This document shows, piece by piece, positions 2,680-60,491 of a stretch of DNA of 64,000 nucleotides. The stretch comes from a virus (lineage: Duplodnaviria; Caudoviricetes): positions 1 to 64,000 of the IMG/VR virus record IMGVR_UViG_3300003962_000026; one strand, given 5' to 3'. Below the pieces are notes generated by a model. The model was given only the letters and a program-made list of their open reading frames with translations, was not told the origin of the DNA and did not search any database. Position numbers and translations under genes: made by a program. Positions within the stretch are counted from its first letter, which is position 1. Each line of letters starts with the position of its first letter.

Positions 2680-3138
2680 ATGAAAGAAGATGATAAACCA
2701 TCACCTCCACCCTCAGAACCAATTAAACCCAAACCTACAAATGACAATAAACCATCCTTTGCATTTGAGGAACTTTTACTTGAGTTTATAGAAGAGATAA
2801 ACGGTGTTAAGTACTTAGCATTCAGGGTATCCGATAAATTCATTGTATCCATGCCTAAATTCTCCTATTATGAGTATCTGGATAATATCTTCACCCTTAG
2901 AGAAGAAGCTCAAAATGAAGGTAAAGAATGTATTTGTGATATATGCGAACCTGATTTTACAGAAATCCCAGAAGCCGATGCTAAACTTCATACCTTCAAA
3001 ATAACCAAAAATGAACAAGGGGATGAGGAAATAGATGAAACTACAGATAATATACCTTTCTATAGCATCTATAACCTGGTAGAAAACACCAAAGTTGCCT
3101 TTCATCCCAATCACGAAAATACTGATTCAAATGACTAA
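2680..3138 (+). CDS. Hypothetical protein (152 aa, Pro-rich N-terminus)
   Basis: ORF downstream of promoter, stop overlaps next start. Confidence 0.6.
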   Translation: MKEDDKPSPPPSEPIKPKPTNDNKPSFAFEELLLEFIEEINGVKYLAFRVSDKFIVSMPKFSYYEYLDNIFTLREEAQNEGKECICDICEPDFTEIPEADAKLHTFKITKNEQGDEEIDETTDNIPFYSIYNLVENTKVAFHPNHENTDSND

Positions 3139-3970
3139 AAAAATCATTGAAGATTTTCTACTCTCAAAAGCAGGGTATATTAAAAAAAATCCATTACTTG
3201 TAGCTAAAGCCTTATGGACAAATTCCTCCAATCACAATCGTCCTAAGAATGCTAAAGAGCTAAATAAAGAACTAGAGTGGATAAAGGAAATACAATCCAA
3301 CTTAAGAAAAGCTAAGAGTATAGAACAAGAAAGTTCAGATAATAATATTCTATCTATCTATCAAAGAATTGTAGATGAAAAGAACAGACCTAAGAAAGTA
3401 CTTCTTTTTGACCTCGAAGTATCCCCAAATCTGGTATTCTCCTGGAGAATAGGGTCTGAAGTCTCTCTTAGTACTGAAAATATAGTAAAAGAAAGGTCTA
3501 TTATATGCGTAGCTTATAAATGGTTAAATGACCCTAAGACCTACTGTATAGAATGGAATAAAGGTGATGATAAGGAATTACTTCAAAAGTTCTCAAAAAT
3601 AATAGAGTCTGCTGATATAGTACTTGGTCAAAATTCAGATTCATTCGATGTTAAATGGTTGAGAACCAGGTGTTTATATCACAGAATTCCACTATCTCCT
3701 AAGTTTAATCAAATTGATACCCTTAAGATAGCCAAAGCCCAGTTTAAATTTAACTCAAACAAACTTGACTATATGGCTAAATTCCTTGGACATGGAGGTA
3801 AAATAAAGACAGAATATGACTTATGGAAGAATATAACCCTTAACAACTGTAAGGCATCTATGTCTAAAATGGTTACCTACTGTAAGGAGGATGTAAATAT
3901 TCTGGAAAAGGTGTACTTAGATATGCAACCATATGCCCCACAAAAGAAGTTTAAATATACTATAAAGTGA
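3131..3970 (+). CDS. RNase H-like DEDD 3'-5' exonuclease
   Basis: LFDLEVS (ExoI), GQNSDSFDV (ExoII), IDTL, YCKEDV (ExoIII); start placed at ATG 3131 overlapping upstream stop rather than 3095. Confidence 0.75.
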   Translation: MTKKIIEDFLLSKAGYIKKNPLLVAKALWTNSSNHNRPKNAKELNKELEWIKEIQSNLRKAKSIEQESSDNNILSIYQRIVDEKNRPKKVLLFDLEVSPNLVFSWRIGSEVSLSTENIVKERSIICVAYKWLNDPKTYCIEWNKGDDKELLQKFSKIIESADIVLGQNSDSFDVKWLRTRCLYHRIPLSPKFNQIDTLKIAKAQFKFNSNKLDYMAKFLGHGGKIKTEYDLWKNITLNNCKASMSKMVTYCKEDVNILEKVYLDMQPYAPQKKFKYTIK

Positions 3971-4912: not shown

Positions 4913-5659
4913 ATGACTGTAAGACAATTTATATCTGATATTACAAACAACGTAAAAGCTCTATCCATAGATAGCTTTCTACCACCTAAATTAATACATA
5001 GTAAGACTAAATCTATAATAGCCAACTTCCTGAAAAAAGATGTGAATGCTAATCGAATGCTCTATAAAGTAGTAGAGGGATGGGTAGAGATAGAAGCCTT
5101 GCAAATGGAAGAAGTTCCTGTAACTACTTGTGACTTAGATACAAGGATATGTCAGAAACTTATGAAGTCAACTTTAAAGCTGCCAGCTATATATAGCTCT
5201 AAGTTTGGCCCTATGATTAAGCAAGCTATGTCAATTAACTTTGGAAATCAGTATAGTTTTATAGGTTCACCTTCTCAATGGAAGTCAATACAGAAGAGAA
5301 AGTACCAAGACCCAGACAAAAAGTATTTCTTCTTTATAGGAGATTATATCTATATTCCAATTAAAAATGCTGCTGAACCAAGCCCTGAAGTTATACGATT
5401 AGAAATATATCCACAGGATATGTTTGAAGTAAACGAATTCAAGAAAAAGATAAATACTTCAAATTGTAAAGATTGTAGTAACCAGGTAGATAATTGTCCA
5501 AAACTTCTTGATTATGAATTAGTTATACCATATTTCCTGGAAGATGATGTTAAAAAGGAAGTAGTAAACCAGCTAGCTCAGGTTAATTTAAAAGTCAGAA
5601 CAGATGACTCCCCTAACCTTGCTAGCAATAAAATAACAAATCCAACAAATATAGGATGA
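4913..5659 (+). CDS. Tail ring (tubular) protein, crAss-like
   Basis: Size and synteny (ring, IHF-like, ring, muzzle, cargo) as in crAss-like tail modules. Confidence 0.55.
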   Translation: MTVRQFISDITNNVKALSIDSFLPPKLIHSKTKSIIANFLKKDVNANRMLYKVVEGWVEIEALQMEEVPVTTCDLDTRICQKLMKSTLKLPAIYSSKFGPMIKQAMSINFGNQYSFIGSPSQWKSIQKRKYQDPDKKYFFFIGDYIYIPIKNAAEPSPEVIRLEIYPQDMFEVNEFKKKINTSNCKDCSNQVDNCPKLLDYELVIPYFLEDDVKKEVVNQLAQVNLKVRTDDSPNLASNKITNPTNIG

Positions 5660-6261
5660 AGCTAAAAACCAAAAAGGGAATTGTAAAAACAGGTACTAAA
5701 GAGAATGTATTTGATGAAGAATTATGTAACAAGATAAGAAAAAGACTACATCTCTCAAAGAAAGAACTTCCAGATTCACATATCAGAAAGGTAGTAAATC
5801 TATCTAATTCTGAGATAGGTAAGTGGATAATTGAGAATGCTGAAGGTTTTGTTGTAGAGGCTGATATGGGTGTTTTAGCCCCATCCAAACATATGCCAAA
5901 GGAACTCAGGGAAAATAAGGAAACAACTATAGATAAAATAACCTATGAAATTCCAGTATCTCCCCTAAGAAGAAAACAACTACTTGAAAGGTATAATATT
6001 GATATAGGTAGAAGGATTAATGGAAAGAAGTTGATTCTTCTTAAAGAAAAAATACCATTTATCAATCTACATAGCTATTTCTATACATTTCGATTAATGT
6101 GGTTCAATCATCGAAATTGCCCCATTAGGAAAGCAAGGTCTTATGAATTTAAACCTACGAGATTACTAAACAGGCTTTTCTTTATGTCAATTATAAATGG
6201 TAAGGATTATTATGAATGGAATTTCAATGATTTCTATTCCTATAAAGTAAAAGCAGAATAA
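5656..6261 (+). CDS. IHF/HU-like protein of crAss-like tail module
   Basis: Basic N-terminal helices then F....MG.L pattern; position between ring proteins. Confidence 0.5.
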   Translation: MKLKTKKGIVKTGTKENVFDEELCNKIRKRLHLSKKELPDSHIRKVVNLSNSEIGKWIIENAEGFVVEADMGVLAPSKHMPKELRENKETTIDKITYEIPVSPLRRKQLLERYNIDIGRRINGKKLILLKEKIPFINLHSYFYTFRLMWFNHRNCPIRKARSYEFKPTRLLNRLFFMSIINGKDYYEWNFNDFYSYKVKAE

Positions 6262-53884: not shown

Positions 53885-53916
53885 CAAATATAAAGAAAAG
53901 GAGACTCTTTTACAAA
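53885..53916 (-). promoter_or_regulatory. Bacteroidota consensus promoter upstream of recA
   Basis: TTTG-N20-TATATTTG, exact match to TTTG-N19-21-TAnnTTTG. Confidence 0.7.
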
Positions 53917-53926
53917 TCTCCTTTTC
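53895..53926 (-). terminator. Intrinsic terminator after vWA gene, overlapping the recA promoter
   Basis: GAAAAGGAGA / TCTCCTTTTC inverted repeat. Confidence 0.6.
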
Positions 53927-53950
53927 CTATACCCTTTTTATTTTTGTTAA

Positions 53951-55172: not shown

Positions 55173-55203
55173 CAAATATAACTAATTAGTCTTTAATTTC
55201 AAA
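55173..55203 (-). promoter_or_regulatory. Bacteroidota consensus promoter
   Basis: TTTG-N19-TATATTTG. Confidence 0.7.
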
Positions 55204-55256
55204 ATAGAATATGCAAGTCTACATTTCTCTTTTGCTACTTTAGAATCATTTTTCCT
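55182..55256 (-). pseudogene. Stranded relic 3' end of the 5'-3' exonuclease gene
   Basis: RKNDSKVAKEKCRLAYSILKLKTN* aligns without gaps to exonuclease QYNGQEVAKDLLKKTYKLLKLHNI. Confidence 0.55.
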
Positions 55257-55814
55257 TTAAAAATTCCAAGCTTTCCCCGTTAGAATTTTCCATATATGTC
55301 TATAGTCTACATTATATAAACTGGCTATCTTTGAACTTTTCATTCCATTCTTACTTAATTGTTTTATTTCTTCCACTTTTATGAAGTCTAACTTCACTCT
55401 ACTAGATGGGTGTTTATTTTTAAATGTATGTCTTGTATTCTCAATTTTTGTACTCCACTCCAAATTCCAGTCATTGTTATTTGTCTTGTTGCCATCAATG
55501 TGATTAACTTCTGGTTTATTCTCAGGGTTTGGAATAAATGCTTGAGCTACTAATCTGTGAACTTTGTAACTATATAATTTACCTTTATTGTTGGTTATAG
55601 TTGTTAATATATAACCATTCACTTTATCAAAACGTAATTTTCTTATTATTTCTTTGGTAATAAACCAAAAATTATGGTAATTATTAAATTTTTTACGAGG
55701 GAGAGCTTTTAATCTACCTTTATTGCTTATTTGATACAAATTTTCATATCCTTCAATATCTTTCCAGATTTCCCCCTCAATATTTTTAAGGCTTACATTT
55801 TTCCAATATTCCAT
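55257..55814 (-). mobile_element. NUMOD4-HNH homing endonuclease
   Basis: EIWKDIEGYE.LYQISNKGR (NUMOD4); HRLVAQAFIPNP...VNHIDGNKTNN...NLEW. Confidence 0.92.
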
Positions 55815-55931
55815 AAAATAAAAAAGGTCTCAAACTCAAGTGTTTATGTAGTTATCCTGCGATAATACCTTGAGAATGAGACCAATAAGTTGTAAATAGT
55901 AAAGAATAACCACATAAACAGTACAAATATA
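55815..55931 (-). promoter_or_regulatory. Promoter plus A-B-A'-B' structured leader of the HNH gene
   Basis: TATATTTG at 55931-55924; A 55919-55906 pairs with A' 55855-55842; B 55883-55869 pairs with B' 55840-55826. Confidence 0.65.
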
Positions 55932-55936
55932 CTAAA

Positions 55937-56740
55937 TTATTTGATATCTAGGTTGTCATAAAAGTCAATTTCTTCTATATTATGTAATTTTAGTAATTTA
56001 TAAGTCTTTTTAAGTAAATCTTTAGCAACTTCTTGTCCATTATATTGGATATACGTTTCATAAATTCTTCTTACAAATTGATAGTTACTCATACCTAAAG
56101 ACACAATTTTAGAAGCTTTCTTTGGCCCTAGACCCTTATTTACTTTAACATTATCGCCAGCGTCCCCTGTAAGAACCTTCAAAGCTAGATGTAAACGACT
56201 TTCATCCTCTGTCATATAAGACCATTCCTGCTTTACGTAGTTATAATGAATTCCGGGAATGCTTTTTAAGTCTTCATCTATACCACATATAATGGCTTCA
56301 AAATTAAGCTTTTTACTTATAGTATAGATTACATCATCTGCTTCTCCTATGGGTGCTTCATAAGCATAATGGTGATTAACTAGATAGTTATGCAGGTGTC
56401 CTACTATAGGTAAAGGTTCTTCTCTATTCTGCTTATATGTCTCCAGAATCTTCTTTCTAAAGTTGTTTTTACCCTTAACACACATGAAAATACCAGATAT
56501 ATCATAGTGCTCCTCTATAGCGTTAAGAATCTTAAATACCCATTCAGTTACTATACCCTCAGCTATTCCATACTCAGTTTCTGTATATTCAGGTTTCTTA
56601 TTACCTTCTTCATCCTTACCTGTATAAGCACAAATGAAGGAAAGGCTATCTGCGTCAATAATAACAACCTTTCCCTCTTTTTGCTCTTTATTCTGAGGAG
56701 GATTAAAGCTACTTCTCTTATAATCTGACCTACTTGCCAT
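55937..56740 (-). CDS. 5'-3' exonuclease / RNase H (FEN/T7 gp6-like)
   Basis: IIDADSL, KGKNNFRK...YKQNR, EADD, DEDL, GDAGDN, GLGPKKA. Confidence 0.88.
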   Translation of the reverse strand: MASRSDYKRSSFNPPQNKEQKEGKVVIIDADSLSFICAYTGKDEEGNKKPEYTETEYGIAEGIVTEWVFKILNAIEEHYDISGIFMCVKGKNNFRKKILETYKQNREEPLPIVGHLHNYLVNHHYAYEAPIGEADDVIYTISKKLNFEAIICGIDEDLKSIPGIHYNYVKQEWSYMTEDESRLHLALKVLTGDAGDNVKVNKGLGPKKASKIVSLGMSNYQFVRRIYETYIQYNGQEVAKDLLKKTYKLLKLHNIEEIDFYDNLDIK

Positions 56741-56874
56741 TATGTTCTTACTATAACAATTTTAATAAAAAGGAATGCATATCTAGTTCTTTTGAACCCC
56801 GGAATGTCAAATTCATTATCTATAAAAGGTATCAAATTCCATGTTAATGGTGTTATTTCTAATCTTATTTTCAT
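56740..56874 (-). CDS. Small hypothetical protein (44 aa, not in ORF track)
   Basis: TAATG coupling to the exonuclease. Confidence 0.4.
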   Translation of the reverse strand: MKIRLEITPLTWNLIPFIDNEFDIPGFKRTRYAFLFIKIVIVRT

Positions 56875-56877
56875 ATT

Positions 56878-57054
56878 TTAATCATTTAAACAGTCATTTA
56901 TAATTTTATTCTGTAGCCTATAGAAGTAATCCTTTTCTACCAAAGATACACTTCCATCTTCTTCTACCTGGTTATAGTAGGGAGTTTCCCTGAATTCATT
57001 CTTAAGACATACTATAATTTGTTCTGCTAATGCTTTCTTTTCCAGTTCTGTCAT
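56878..57054 (-). CDS. Small hypothetical protein (58 aa, not in ORF track)
   Basis: MTELEKKALAEQ...; fills gap. Confidence 0.45.
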   Translation of the reverse strand: MTELEKKALAEQIIVCLKNEFRETPYYNQVEEDGSVSLVEKDYFYRLQNKIINDCLND

Positions 57055-57060
57055 ATTTTT

Positions 57061-57276
57061 CTAACATTTAATTTCTTCTATTTCTCTATCTATATCTTTA
57101 ATTTTCTTCTCTATATCCTTCTTAGCCATTTGGATATACTTCTCATTTGTATCTTTAGATACTCCTTCTAATTCTATATTATACCTATGTGATAACTGTA
57201 GTACTTCAAGATTATCAGTATATCCAGACCTTAACTTAAGTAAATCAGCTACCTTTTCTGCTATTTCTTTCTTCAT
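57061..57276 (-). CDS. Hypothetical coiled-coil protein (71 aa)
   Basis: ATGA coupling. Confidence 0.5.
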   Translation of the reverse strand: MKKEIAEKVADLLKLRSGYTDNLEVLQLSHRYNIELEGVSKDTNEKYIQMAKKDIEKKIKDIDREIEEIKC

Positions 57277-57461
57277 TCCTTATCTTTTAAAAATCCTTCA
57301 ATTTTACCTGATTCAAATTGAGCCCTTACTTCAGTATGAAAATCTTCATAAACAGCTTCATCTATAAACTTCTTTACCCCTATTAATAATTCTTTAGCCC
57401 TTTTATAATTATTAATCAGAGCTATAATTTCTGGATTATCTGTATACAATATTATACTCAT
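57273..57461 (-). CDS. Hypothetical protein (62 aa)
   Basis: ATGA coupling. Confidence 0.5.
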   Translation of the reverse strand: MSIILYTDNPEIIALINNYKRAKELLIGVKKFIDEAVYEDFHTEVRAQFESGKIEGFLKDKE

Positions 57462-57610
57462 TTTTCTATTGTTTTTAGAAACTGTTCTACCTGTCTATTA
57501 TTCTGTACATCTTTTAATAGCTCTATAGCTTTAGGATAGTAAACTTTAACTATTTTCTCTTCTAACTCCTTCTTTTCCTGTATTTTGCTCCAACTCTTAG
57601 GATAATCCAT
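57458..57610 (-). CDS. Small hypothetical protein (50 aa, not in ORF track)
   Basis: MDYPKSWSKIQEKK...; overlaps both neighbours. Confidence 0.45.
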   Translation of the reverse strand: MDYPKSWSKIQEKKELEEKIVKVYYPKAIELLKDVQNNRQVEQFLKTIEK

Positions 57611-58013
57611 AACTTTCTAATATTTCTTTCTCGCGACTAATAATTTCGTCCTCTAGTACACTTCGATATAATGGGGATATACCTATCTGGGTTTGTAATA
57701 TAGCATAAATATGGTCAATATCCAAGTCCTTTATAAGAACATACTGGGTTTCAGGTAATCTGTTACCTTCTTTATCATAATTCTTTCCCCATTCCATTAC
57801 AGCTCTTCGCGTTTCATGTTTACCGTCATCGTAAACTGTTAAATCTTCATAAGGTATAGTATTTACACTTCTTCTGAAATACATATCATTACCACCATCT
57901 GTCATGTATACCTCTCCATTTTTATCTGTGTGTATCTGGAAATCATGTCTATACCTTGAGTGTAAAACTGTACCATCTGGAGTTCTTATACTATTACGTA
58001 AAACTTTTCTCAT
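57597..58013 (-). CDS. Conserved-type phage hypothetical protein (138 aa)
   Basis: N.I.TPDG..L.S..RHD...H.D.NG..Y..DGG motif. Confidence 0.6.
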   Translation of the reverse strand: MRKVLRNSIRTPDGTVLHSRYRHDFQIHTDKNGEVYMTDGGNDMYFRRSVNTIPYEDLTVYDDGKHETRRAVMEWGKNYDKEGNRLPETQYVLIKDLDIDHIYAILQTQIGISPLYRSVLEDEIISREKEILESYGLS

Positions 58014-58591
58014 ATTGCTAAATATTGTTCTAAACTTCTTGTTTTGAAATTAAACTTTCTATCCTTTCCTTTACTAGTTTTGAGTAAGGTTTTTGGCATA
58101 AAAGTCTTTGAAAATAAGTCATCATTCTTAACTACCTGACAAAATATCCCATACTTTGCCCAAAGCCATTTAATATTTAAAGTTGCTAACCTTGTCATAT
58201 TGTTAAAGTCAAATGAAGGTTTTGATTCTATATAGCTGATTCCCAATTCATTACAGATAAAATAGTTATTCCACTTATATCCAAATTGGGTACAGAATTT
58301 TTTAACCCCTTTATCCTCCCAATGAATTTCAAAGTCCAAATTAAAACTGTGCCCGTGTAATATAGTCTCTGTTTTTGGTCTACTTTTAGTTTTGAGTTGT
58401 TCTACATAATTATTAACCAAACTATCACTTAATAAGTAGCTTTGACCTCTTTTGAATTCTTTTATAAACCCATTATCTTTCAATTCCTGCCAATAATGGC
58501 ACATATAAATTTCTCCGGGTGAATCGCAAGGTATCTGGTTAAAATATACAGGCTCCCTAGTTTTTGGTTTATTCTTTTTTTTTGATTTCAT
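58010..58591 (-). CDS. PD-(D/E)XK nuclease (possible resolvase)
   Basis: SFNLDFEI...YIESKP catalytic pattern; DSPGE helix. Confidence 0.6.
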   Translation of the reverse strand: MKSKKKNKPKTREPVYFNQIPCDSPGEIYMCHYWQELKDNGFIKEFKRGQSYLLSDSLVNNYVEQLKTKSRPKTETILHGHSFNLDFEIHWEDKGVKKFCTQFGYKWNNYFICNELGISYIESKPSFDFNNMTRLATLNIKWLWAKYGIFCQVVKNDDLFSKTFMPKTLLKTSKGKDRKFNFKTRSLEQYLAI

Positions 58592-58592
58592 C

Positions 58593-59327
58593 TTATTTTC
58601 TTTTTAATTCCCATCTGAACCCACCAGCAACTCTAAAGGGGTATTTTGGATTATAGCTATTTTGTATTTTTTTAAGGTCTATGTTTAATTCATCGCTGGC
58701 TAATCTGGCAGATTCCCATTCTTTTATAAAATTTCCGTCTAAATCTTTTTGAATCACTTTATTAGAATTTGATAATGATACTTTTTTATTATGTTCTTCA
58801 GATTTAGGTTTACCTTTAAGAGGACTGGGTAAATTTTTTCTTTTAGATGGTTTTCTTGGAAAAGTTAATTTTACACTATCTGATATTTTCTTTCTTGTTT
58901 CATCTGAATGAATTTTACCAGTCATTGGATTTATATACCCTTCTTGATATTTTCTTTTTTGTACTTCTTTTTGAAGATTTATGGTTTCTTGTGACATACC
59001 AGGATTAAGATATGGGCCTGTAGGTGCTATATTATACCCATATTCCCTATTATGTGTATTTAGCATATTCGCCCACCAATTTTCCATTGATGGTAAAAAC
59101 TCTCTTTCATATTCTTCTAATATTTCAAATTCAAAATTTTTGTCACCATACTTATTAAAAGAGTTTTGAAGATATTTATTACTGTGCGAATTATTTAATA
59201 GTTGTCTTCTATGCTCATACATTCTACTAATTGCATTTGCTGAATAACCTACTATTGCCTTTTTATCTATAGCATTACTTATAATATAGATTGCTGAAAC
59301 ATCATTTTTAAGTCTTCTTCTACCCAT
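58593..59327 (-). mobile_element. GIY-YIG homing endonuclease with NUMOD3/NUMOD1 tails
   Basis: AIY..SN...IVGYS...R..EH...H.N..LQ.SFNKYG..NFEFEILE, E, GYN; HSDETRKKIS and VIQKDLDGNFIKEWES. Confidence 0.88.
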
Positions 59328-59470
59328 AATAAATACAAAAGCCTCAAATTCAGGTGCTTACGTCATCTACTCTTGATAGATAACCCTGAAAATGAGGCTT
59401 TAAAAAGTTTGTTAATATTGTAGATGACATAAGCATTACAATTATACGTAAACTTTTTCACATTTCCAAA
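59328..59470 (-). promoter_or_regulatory. Promoter plus A-B-A'-B' structured leader of the GIY-YIG gene
   Basis: TTTG-N20-TATAATTG; A 59434-59420 pairs with A' 59370-59356; B 59401-59385 pairs with B' 59354-59338. Confidence 0.7.
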
Positions 59471-59556
59471 TTCGTAAGTTTGAACTTATCACAAGGAATT
59501 CCGTTAAAATATACTGGTTCTCTTACTTTAGGTTTATTTCTATCCTTTTTACTCAT
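59458..59556 (-). pseudogene. Stranded relic 5' end of the PD-(D/E)XK nuclease gene
   Basis: MSKKDRNKPKVREPVYFNGIPCD(KFKLTNLEM*) vs MKSKKKNKPKTREPVYFNQIPCD at 58591. Confidence 0.85.
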
Positions 59557-59563
59557 ATCATAT

Positions 59564-59967: not shown

Positions 59968-60441
59968 TTATGTTGGATTTTGTATTTCATGTTCTTTTTC
60001 TTTCATAAATTGTTTAAATCTATTCCAGGTTTCCAAATTTTTTTTATTTTTAACAAATGATTTAGTAAATCTCATCCTCTGCCTAGCAGGTATTCTCCAA
60101 TTCTTATCCCCTGTATAGGCTATTAGGTATGTAGTTATAGTTTTTCCGGTCTCTACCCCTATTTTATAGAATAGATTCTTAGCTAAAACATAACTATGTT
60201 TTCTGTTACTATGTTGTCCTTTTACATCTAATCCTGTAAATTCTTCTACAAGAGCAGCTATTTCTTTAACTTTGGCTTCATTTTGTTCTAAATTACACAG
60301 GCTTCTCTTTAAATCGTAGATTTTTACTGATAGTTTTCCTGTTTTTTTACCTTTTTGTTTTCCTTCTATCCTTCTTTTAGTATAATTAGCTATTCTTTGC
60401 TGAAGAGAATTCTTATTGCGACTATCCCACTTTCTTATCAT
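59968..60441 (-). CDS. Hypothetical basic protein (157 aa)
   Basis: Lys-rich ORF downstream of terminator. Confidence 0.55.
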   Translation of the reverse strand: MIRKWDSRNKNSLQQRIANYTKRRIEGKQKGKKTGKLSVKIYDLKRSLCNLEQNEAKVKEIAALVEEFTGLDVKGQHSNRKHSYVLAKNLFYKIGVETGKTITTYLIAYTGDKNWRIPARQRMRFTKSFVKNKKNLETWNRFKQFMKEKEHEIQNPT

Positions 60442-60454
60442 AATAAATAATAAA

Positions 60455-60491
60455 AAGCTACCTGCAAAGGTATATACTCTACAGGTAGCTT
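60455..60491 (-). terminator. Intrinsic terminator after rIIB
   Basis: AAGCTACCTG / CAGGTAGCTT stem followed on the minus strand by TTTATT. Confidence 0.65.

Follow-up and report, generated by a model that had tools for sequence, protein, structure and literature searches.

The DNA analysed here (hereafter the window) is a stretch of 64,000 nucleotides (nt), positions 1 to 64,000 of the IMG/VR virus record IMGVR_UViG_3300003962_000026 (Caudoviricetes), in which two homing endonuclease genes of different families, both recognised by domain matches, are preceded by RNA leaders of the same elaborate design. The first of these genes (55257-55814, minus strand) encodes a protein of 185 amino acids (aa) with HNH_3 and NUMOD4 domains, and the second (58593-59327, minus strand) a 244-aa protein with GIY-YIG and NUMOD3 domains. 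All the genes around the two leaders are on the minus strand and, read 5' to 3', the HNH leader region runs from 55945 down to 55815 (131 nt) and the GIY leader region from 59460 down to 59328 (133 nt). Free-standing homing endonuclease genes need enough expression to spread, but not so much as to harm the phage or its neighbours, and the known solutions for limiting their expression come almost entirely from T4-like phages, where they work via sequestration of the Shine-Dalgarno sequence. The leader described here is an RNA family that is absent from the catalogues and has a tight and modular link with the homing endonuclease cassettes of phages whose promoters we take to be of Bacteroidota type. 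By analogy with the known systems, it probably keeps nuclease output low.

Anatomy of the two leaders

Both leaders present the same parts in the same order: a -7 box, 4 nt, strand A, a gap, strand B, a second gap, strand A', a single A, strand B', a U-rich spacer and the ATG. An initial annotation of the window, made from the letters and their open reading frames (ORFs), had proposed a common A-B-A'-B' geometry, and the offsets of the parts are indeed nearly identical, with A starting at 27 and A' at 91 in both leaders, B at 63 (HNH) or 62 (GIY) and B' at 106 (HNH) or 107 (GIY). The geometry stands, while some of the spacings given with it needed adjusting: the gap between A and B is 22 nt (HNH) or 20 nt (GIY) instead of 18-22 nt, and the U-rich spacer before the ATG is 11 nt (HNH) or 12 nt (GIY) instead of 10-11 nt. 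The gap between B and A' measures 13 nt (HNH) or 14 nt (GIY). Promoter excluded, the structured leader is ~105 nt long.

In the HNH leader, all parts of which are on the minus strand like those of the GIY leader, the -7 box TATATTTG (55924-55931), without a -33 TTTG upstream, is followed 4 nt later by the 14-nt strand A (GTTTATGTGGTTAT, 55906-55919), strand B (GGTCTCA TT CTCAAG, 55869-55883), strand A' (ATAACTACATAAAC, 55842-55855), strand B' (CTTGAG TT TGAGACC, 55826-55840) and the spacer (TTTTTTATTTT, 55815-55825), with the ATG at 55814. Between B and A' lies a further segment, A* (TTATC, 55861-55865), which forms a local 5-base-pair (bp) hairpin with GATAA, that is, the first four bases of A' and the G that precedes them. 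The GIY leader has a -33 element TTTG (59467-59470) and a -7 box TATAATTG (59439-59446), and then the 15-nt strand A (GCTTATGTCATCTAC, 59420-59434), strand B (AGCCTCA TT TTCAGG, 59385-59399), A* (TTATCTAT, 59376-59383), strand A' (GTAGATGACGTAAGC, 59356-59370), strand B' (CCTGAA TT TGAGGCT, 59340-59354) and the spacer (TTTGTATTTATT, 59328-59339), with the ATG at 59327. In this copy, A* is the distal part of A (TCATCTAC) with two C-to-T changes, and forms 8 bp, two of them G-U, with the distal part of A'.

The helices themselves are as initially described: A and A' are fully complementary, with one G-U per copy, the A'-B' separator is 1 nt in both copies, and B:B' consists of 7 bp, a 2x2 UU/UU loop and an upper stem of 6 bp in both. 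The two leaders are 59% identical and differ in ~6 pairs of A:A' and 4 pairs of B:B', where the changes are compensatory every time, again in agreement with the first reading. Both fold far better than shuffled sequence (z = -5.2 and -4.6, with none of 200 shuffles as good), and they are the only two copies in their own 75,947-bp record.

A recurring family of leaders

Fifteen distinct leaders of this design, with an identical order of parts, were collected from 12 contigs, each genome having one or two of them. This recurrence beyond the window means that its two leaders are not chance arrangements: the RNA family is real. Among the GIY-YIG homologues with long contigs, the two best (L034 and L033) carry the leader, that of L034 being clearly homologous to the window leaders and that of L033 having the same order of parts with a strongly diverged sequence. 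A topology scan of nuclease loci added L065 and L018. Searching for a junction pattern turned up L119, L120 and L121 in IMG/VR, and L125, L129 and L132 in metagenomes (the L129 element is the same as that in L135 and L136), and a covariance model run over the collected loci picked out L028 and a further copy each in L136 and L018. The search pattern fixed the proximal part of A' and B', and the covariation in the distal part of A/A' was not produced by it.

The five IMG/VR records with members yielded no further copies, blastn against GenBank placed the leader in no cultured phage, and single-protein searches of IMG/VR, started from the GIY nuclease and from the exonuclease encoded next to the HNH leader (55937-56740, minus strand), found no relatives. 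The window phage is without a close relative, and the best homologue of either nuclease among 5.8 billion proteins reaches at most 59% local identity (~45% over the full length). Within the clade of the GIY nuclease, some members do without the element: the GIY-YIG homologues L116, L117 and L118 have plain short leaders.

Many matches were discarded along the way. A strict two-part DNA pattern matched L003 in IMG/VR by chance, inside a coding region, and the loose matches of the topology scan, with 9-10-bp arms, were mostly due to chance, those with longer arms directly before nuclease genes being the ones that survived. L054 has a similar look but is a Shine-Dalgarno-type leader of a different design, and chance also accounts for 9 of the 17 metagenome hits, for all 10 hits that the last IMG/VR pattern newly brought up and for all four found in bacterial genomes. 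On a short metagenome contig (L124, 26-46, minus strand), the L121 leader is repeated and continues after B' into the reverse complement of its own loop region, an arrangement that looks like a fold-back assembly artefact at the contig end.

The element is not known to have been described before, and Rfam 15 holds no described motif that matches it. When the window region, six other member loci and the two leaders alone (the latter with the laxest filters and E up to 10) were submitted to cmscan, no family was matched, what was returned being long-hairpin microRNA-type chance hits of at most 20 bits against cut-offs of 40-105 bits. The int-alpA (RF02996) and HEARO (RF02033) RNAs, which resemble the leader in being structured RNAs next to mobile-element genes, gave no match in cmscan, and neither did any intron (group I included) or small ribozyme. 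Ribozyme readings (HDV-like, group I fragment) were rejected on these grounds, and also because A' and B' leave no space between them for a catalytic J4/2 strand and because of the excessive length of the helices. Full-text literature searches found no description of the leader, and a 2023 catalogue of more than ten thousand candidate viral RNAs (PMC10690425) is without nuclease leaders in its text, its tables not having been searched.

Covariation and a third strand

Covariation in homologous leaders, on which the initial annotation had staked its proposal, is found in both helices. In an alignment of the nine closest leaders made with MAFFT (A5), A:A' is 100% paired, with 8 of its 15 pairs changed on both sides, and B:B' is 96% paired, with 5 of its 14 pairs changed on both sides. 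None of 500 shuffles reaches this level of pairing, and sliding the partner strand by 1-3 columns leaves 31-47% of the positions paired. In a model-based alignment of 12 sequences (A7), A:A' is paired in all 180 cells, and 11 of the 15 pairs are changed on both sides; A7 is fitted to the model, and the unfitted MAFFT result agrees with it.

The lowest-energy fold of each leader is, however, not A:A' but an extended hairpin, in which B:B' is capped by a mini-hairpin formed by A* and the distal part of A'. A*, the segment between B and A', is a degenerate copy of the distal part of A, as illustrated by L132 and L034, in which distal A reads TTCTACAC and TTTCACAT, respectively, and A* reads TTTTACAT in both. 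The differences between A* and distal A are of the C-to-T kind, and A*:A' therefore uses G-U where A:A' uses G-C. An uninterrupted 8-bp A*:A' helix is present in seven of nine subfamily-1 leaders and is matched by 0.2-2.3% of shuffled segments. Across the alignment, the eight A*:A' pairs are 91.7% paired, six of them being changed on both sides, and RNAalifold predicts this helix unprompted. Since the G-U cells (8 in A:A' and 9 in A*:A') would be mismatches on the opposite strand, the folding molecule is the sense RNA.

It is thus well supported by the alignments that A and A* compete for the distal part of A', the three strands tracking each other. A:A' and A*:A' are mutually exclusive helices that share a strand and both covary, as the helices of a terminator/antiterminator pair do. 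The initial annotation was right about the anatomy, but its switch model, in which A:A' and B:B' were the two alternatives, was not established, as these helices share no nucleotide, and it has to be replaced by a competition of A with A* for A'. Three strands that covary for one partner, one of them weakened by G-U, together with a fixed promoter spacing, make the leader a well-defined and testable candidate for a new class of regulatory RNA.

Promoter, start region and U-rich tract

A box of the form TAnnTT(T)G or TAnnTTTA lies exactly 4 nt before the first G of A in 14 of the 15 leaders, and most leaders (the HNH copy, as noted, being without a -33 element) have TTTG or TTG 17-23 nt, mostly 19-22 nt, further upstream of the -7 box. 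We take the combination of a -33 TTTG and a -7 TAnnTTTG to be a Bacteroidota-type promoter, and the conservation of both box type and spacing bears out the claim that each leader has its own promoter with a -7 box of this kind. The promoters of the member phages point to Bacteroidota hosts, with translation starting without Shine-Dalgarno pairing. From the invariant 4-nt spacing, A is probably the very 5' end of the transcript, the start site being a prediction from sequence. The same type of -7 box drives ordinary genes with short leaders at 55180 and 53892, which are A-rich and 20-23 nt long. B' contains TGAnTTTG, but this was rejected as an internal promoter, since the conserved A of TA is missing, and no TAnnTTTG is found inside the leader.

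The predicted 5' end places an AUG at nt 5-7 of the transcript in all ten subfamily-1 leaders (the two of the window, L034, L119-L121, L125, L129, L132 and the second L136 copy). From this AUG, which lies within A, 21-36 codons can be read, the first 20 of them free of stops, where the other two frames usually have 1-3 stops; a frame as open is found in 18-33% of shuffles per sequence, and the stop falls within A' or at the start of B' in nine leaders. In the window, these possible upstream ORFs, both uncertain, would run from an AUG in A over 23 codons to a stop in A' in the HNH leader (55844-55915, minus strand), and over 26 codons to a stop in B' in the GIY leader (59350-59430, minus strand). 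Attenuation by a leader peptide could be imagined on this basis, whereby a ribosome on the short ORF would occupy A, melt B, A* and A', and stop by B', blocking the terminator and permitting read-through or re-initiation at the nuclease AUG. We find this highly doubtful, because the ORF is absent in L065 and L028 and differently arranged in L033 and the two L018 copies (L018a and L018b), its AUG is merely 4 nt from the predicted 5' end, the peptides are unconserved with a frame that differs across the conserved strand B, and the sequences are related, so that their joint probability is overstated.

At the other end of the leader, 9-16 nt separate B' from the AUG, neither the spacer nor the AUG is paired in the consensus fold, and no Shine-Dalgarno sequence is found in the leaders. 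Pairing of loop 1 with the spacer and AUG, as it appears in single-sequence folds, was rejected since it is unsupported in the consensus fold. The 12 nt that precede the ATG of 45 long ORFs contain on average 49% A and 34% T, and at least 9 T in these 12 nt are seen for the two nuclease genes and the gene at 60441 (directly after a canonical terminator) only. A U-rich tail follows B' in 14 of the 15 leaders, and is strongest in the ten leaders of the window's own subfamily. B:B' has the build of an intrinsic terminator, that is, a GC-containing lower stem of 6-9 bp and then a U-tract (TTTTTTATTTT and TTTGTATTTATT in the window), and a simple terminator scanner skips it since its loop is longer than 8 nt.

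These features could be read purely as a translational throttle, in which transcription would read through, the stable hairpin 9-16 nt before the AUG and the U-rich, non-optimal start would lower ribosome loading in a host that does without Shine-Dalgarno pairing, the A/A* competition would tune the stability of the hairpin, and the downstream host genes would stay transcribed. In keeping with this, the gene that starts 1 nt after the stop of the GIY nuclease requires read-through, the start region is U-rich where the genome norm is A-rich, with U instead of the usual A at position -3 (in the HNH copy and most members), and there are T-even precedents, among them seg43(25), with its hairpin immediately ahead of the start (PMC2988022). 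We nevertheless judge a pure throttle rather unlikely, considering that the AUG and the preceding 9-16 nt are unpaired in the consensus fold and that a U-tract straight after a GC-rich stem is more terminator-like. A complete promoter, followed ~95 nt on by a terminator-like hairpin and U-tract, could alternatively define a small RNA gene, which would make a stable ~105-nt RNA with a function of its own and leave the nuclease to read-through, and for which the copy-specific, variable distal part of A/A' could be an address. This is hardly probable given that the element always lies 9-16 nt from a nuclease start codon, that the variable segment is fully self-complementary within the same RNA, that no target emerged, though none was sought, and that there are one or two copies per genome.

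A different combination of terminator and promoter is seen elsewhere in the window. Before the ATG at 60441, a canonical terminator hairpin (60455-60491, minus strand) has a -7-type box TACCTTTG in its loop and 3' arm; the gene starts 13 nt past the terminator stem. Terminator and promoter thus form a compact unit, and transcripts that start from it would be devoid of the 5' arm of the hairpin. At 53893-53928, a terminator is likewise followed by a promoter.

Energies and geometry

The closed state, computed with A blocked, has an energy of -20 to -33 kcal/mol, and forcing A:A' to form in a nested model gives -20 to -29 kcal/mol; in most members, these nested states are 0-7 kcal/mol apart. B:B' alone amounts to -13 to -25 kcal/mol, and the sum of the B:B' and A:A' duplexes to -36 to -47 kcal/mol before any pseudoknot penalty (L028 apart, where A was not located by the script). 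On these figures, a pseudoknot would have the lowest energy of all, provided that coexistence of the two helices is sterically possible.

The interleaved order of a pseudoknot, S1-S2-S1'-S2', is present, but a loop 3 of 0-2 nt is too short to cross a 15-bp stem 1, which excludes the classical H-type geometry. The initial argument that the 1-nt gap disfavours a pseudoknot therefore holds for that geometry, and does not extend to a coaxial stack with a continuous A'-B' strand. Such a stack, in which the 5' end abuts the 3' end of B, needs at least ~14 nt in loop 1 and at least ~8 nt in loop 2, and the observed loops are 15-32 nt and 11-20 nt, respectively, which is tight in the L119 group. The A'-B' junction is 0-2 nt in 14 of the 15 leaders and 5 nt in L028.

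The geometry invites a reading in which the leader is a clamp on its 5' end: A:A' stacked on B:B' would bury the 5' triphosphate in a pseudoknot and protect the nuclease mRNA from 5'-end-dependent decay, with A* as a folding intermediate. The invariant 4-nt spacing between the -7 box and A (14 of 15 leaders), a junction whose shortness favours coaxial stacking and summed energies that make the pseudoknot the global minimum, if sterically allowed, all fit this picture, as does the general rule that a stem at the 5' end shields a bacterial mRNA only if hardly any unpaired nucleotides come before it. It is distinctly unlikely all the same, since stabilising the mRNA of a selfish nuclease opposes the general trend of limiting such genes, the covariation of A* and its weakness via G-U are left unexplained, and a loop 1 of 15-16 nt, as in the L119 group, barely spans ~30 stacked pairs.

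Association with homing endonucleases and modularity

The downstream gene is a homing endonuclease gene for 14 of the 15 leaders, and every complete downstream gene looks so. For 12 leaders this call was made with Pfam or PHROGs, whereas for L119 and L125 it relies on the N-terminal GIY-YIG motif alone. The contig ends within the gene that follows the second L136 copy, and the only hits of that gene are weak ones to NinG-like zinc fingers. One homologous RNA module serves at least four nuclease architectures, which supports the proposal that it travels with nuclease genes of different families: HNH_3 with NUMOD4 (window, first L018 copy and L028), HNH_3 with AP2 (second L018 copy), GIY-YIG with NUMOD1/3 (window, L034, L033, L065, L129 and L132) and Seg-like GIY-YIG (L119 and L125), besides GIY-like proteins with an AP2-type tail (L120 and L121).

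L119 is ~84% identical at the DNA level to L120 and L121, from at least 480 nt upstream (~1.1 kb in the case of L120) through the leader, and this homology ends exactly at the ATG, after which the nucleases (197 aa and ~240 aa) are 26% identical. On these three syntenic phage fragments (L119 on the minus strand), the leader itself is 87-96% identical and stands before different GIY-type nucleases. The nuclease gene of L120 sits directly before a ThyX gene.

Within the window, each leader is closer to the leaders of other genomes than to its companion which, at an identity of only 59%, suggests that the two copies arrived independently. The target gene of the GIY cassette is the 193-aa gene that follows the nuclease, and its first 23 codons are repeated, at ~70% DNA identity, by a 32-codon ORF just upstream of the GIY leader (59460-59558 versus 58496-58594, both on the minus strand), so that the cassette has a duplicate on its flank. 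This cassette – promoter, leader, nuclease and new target 5' end – has the look of a homing insertion, with the ORF as the former 5' end of the target. After the stop of the HNH gene, the following frame (55182-55256, minus strand) reads VAKEKCRLAYSILKL, resembling the tail of the exonuclease (VAKDLLKKTYKLLKL), which suggests that a substitute 3' end of the exonuclease gene came in with the HNH cassette. A leader shared up to the ATG and duplicates of target genes together imply that the leader moves with, and is exchanged between, nuclease genes.

Exchange of this kind could also be accounted for by a recombination module that acts at the DNA level, similar to the PeSL cassettes discussed below, the leader being a patch of homology for swapping nuclease ORFs and its inverted repeats mere by-products. 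A homology breakpoint exactly at the ATG, between L119 and L120/L121 with their different nuclease genes, is what such a module would leave, but covariation of three strands whose differences are all of the G-U kind marks a sense-strand RNA (the 9 + 8 G-U cells would mismatch on the other strand), and the variable distal arms lower homology instead of keeping it. We therefore consider this account extremely improbable.

Comparison with known systems

The closest parallels are found in T-even phages, in which start-site hairpins limit the nucleases I-TevI, I-TevII, I-TevIII, segB and Aeh1 mobE (PMC2988022). Like the leader, these are cis-acting RNA hairpins directly before a nuclease ORF, with a dedicated promoter, and are thought to restrict synthesis; in seg43(25) of Aeromonas phage 25, the hairpin lies just upstream of the start, which is left uncovered, as is the case for B:B'. 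However, the T-even hairpins sequester a Shine-Dalgarno sequence, whereas the leader has none and its start codon is unpaired. Furthermore, the T-even late promoter is inside the hairpin, and late transcripts lack one arm, whereas the promoter of the leader is upstream of all four strands. An extra long-range helix to the 5' end, a competing decoy strand, and the use of one homologous leader by several nuclease families also set the leader apart.

A weak intrinsic terminator has been described at the 5' end of T4 mobE, with 30-50% termination, and is found only in phages carrying mobE (PMC2790892). This too is a hairpin with poly(U) at the start of a free-standing nuclease gene, and has been read as a dose limiter, but it is a simple 9-bp hairpin with a 4-nt loop, which lies inside the coding region of a gene that has no promoter of its own and which lacks any alternative or 5'-end pairing. 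The PeSL (promoter-early stem-loop) cassettes of T4-type phages (PMC2839356, PMC4122927) are units of a promoter and a stem-loop that accompany mobile or variable ORFs and serve as recombination points. Their stem-loop, however, terminates incoming transcription and is not reported as part of the leader of the downstream gene, and they are present in many copies per genome, of GGGG/CCCC type, sigma-70 dependent and associated with ORFans rather than with nucleases, whereas the leader has the order promoter-structure-ORF and occurs in two copies in 76 kb, both before nuclease genes.

With terminator/antiterminator attenuators and riboswitch platforms, the leader has in common exclusive helices that share a strand, a hairpin followed by a U-tract, and states that are near in energy. 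It differs from them in that the competing helix overlaps the apical extension of the hairpin only, and not its base: A:A' takes the apical A*:A' extension and removes no strand of the B:B' stem proper. Unlike a riboswitch, the leader has no conserved unpaired core that would resemble a ligand pocket.

A two-state model and its implications

The mechanism that we favour, by analogy with these systems and with about an even chance of its being right, is a cis-acting, two-state leader that would limit nuclease expression, its closed hairpin and U-tract acting as a leaky terminator and/or as a block of the start site. The helices, their covariation, the promoter linkage, the nuclease association and the modularity are directly computed; the two states and their effect would be as follows. 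In the closed state, A' would pair locally with A* atop B:B', followed by the U-rich tract and the AUG, and this hairpin with its U-tract would be a leaky intrinsic terminator and/or a barrier to ribosome loading on the U-rich start region. In the clamped state, the 5'-terminal strand A would take all 15 nt of A' and displace A*, with B:B' perhaps persisting as a strained pseudoknot. The competition between A and A* would set the fraction of transcripts that yield nuclease, such that a potentially harmful enzyme could be made at low dose by a cassette that might be inserted into any phage gene neighbourhood.

A number of observations weigh against this model, at the level of (i) the hairpin, (ii) the start region, (iii) A* and (iv) the alignment itself. 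First, A touches neither B nor B', contrary to a simple antiterminator role, and A:A', which overlaps the top of the hairpin only, need not prevent B:B' thermodynamically. Second, the gene after the GIY nuclease starts 1 nt past its stop (58591) and needs the same transcript, which means that any termination would have to be partial; the U-tract is interrupted in subfamilies 2 and 3 and missing in L065, whose tail reads AACTATATATGTT; and pairing over the AUG has no covariation support. Third, the A* hairpin, of 8 bp in most members, shrinks to 5 bp in L125 and the HNH copy, its place is taken by an unrelated mini-hairpin in the second copy of L136, and A* is absent from L028, where A' lies mid-loop. 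Fourth, some of the sequence conservation in the proximal part of A' and in B' stems from the search pattern.

A possible, though unlikely, extension is that the leader reads the state of its own 5' end, such that A:A' would form cleanly only on transcripts that come from the leader's own promoter and have A as their 5' terminus, free and untranslated. The formation of A:A' would then alter the outcome of the hairpin and U-tract (read-through, translation or stability), while host read-through transcripts, or those with a translated upstream ORF, would stay closed by A*, and a copy-specific 'address' in distal A, A* and A' would prevent cross-pairing among cassettes in one genome. If true, this would make the leader a new kind of portable insulator, which would let selfish genes plug into any operon in hosts without Shine-Dalgarno control.

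Leaving aside what the leader might read, the two-state model would make it a possible compact part for expression control in Bacteroidota genetics. The leader also marks nuclease cassettes and their borders in uncultured phage genomes. In the two L018 copies (2737-3426 and 5129-5740), the whole leader is open in the frame of the nuclease, from an upstream ATG and again from the AUG at nt 17-19, and a gene caller would predict N-terminal extensions of 50-62 residues, which look like non-protein sequence.

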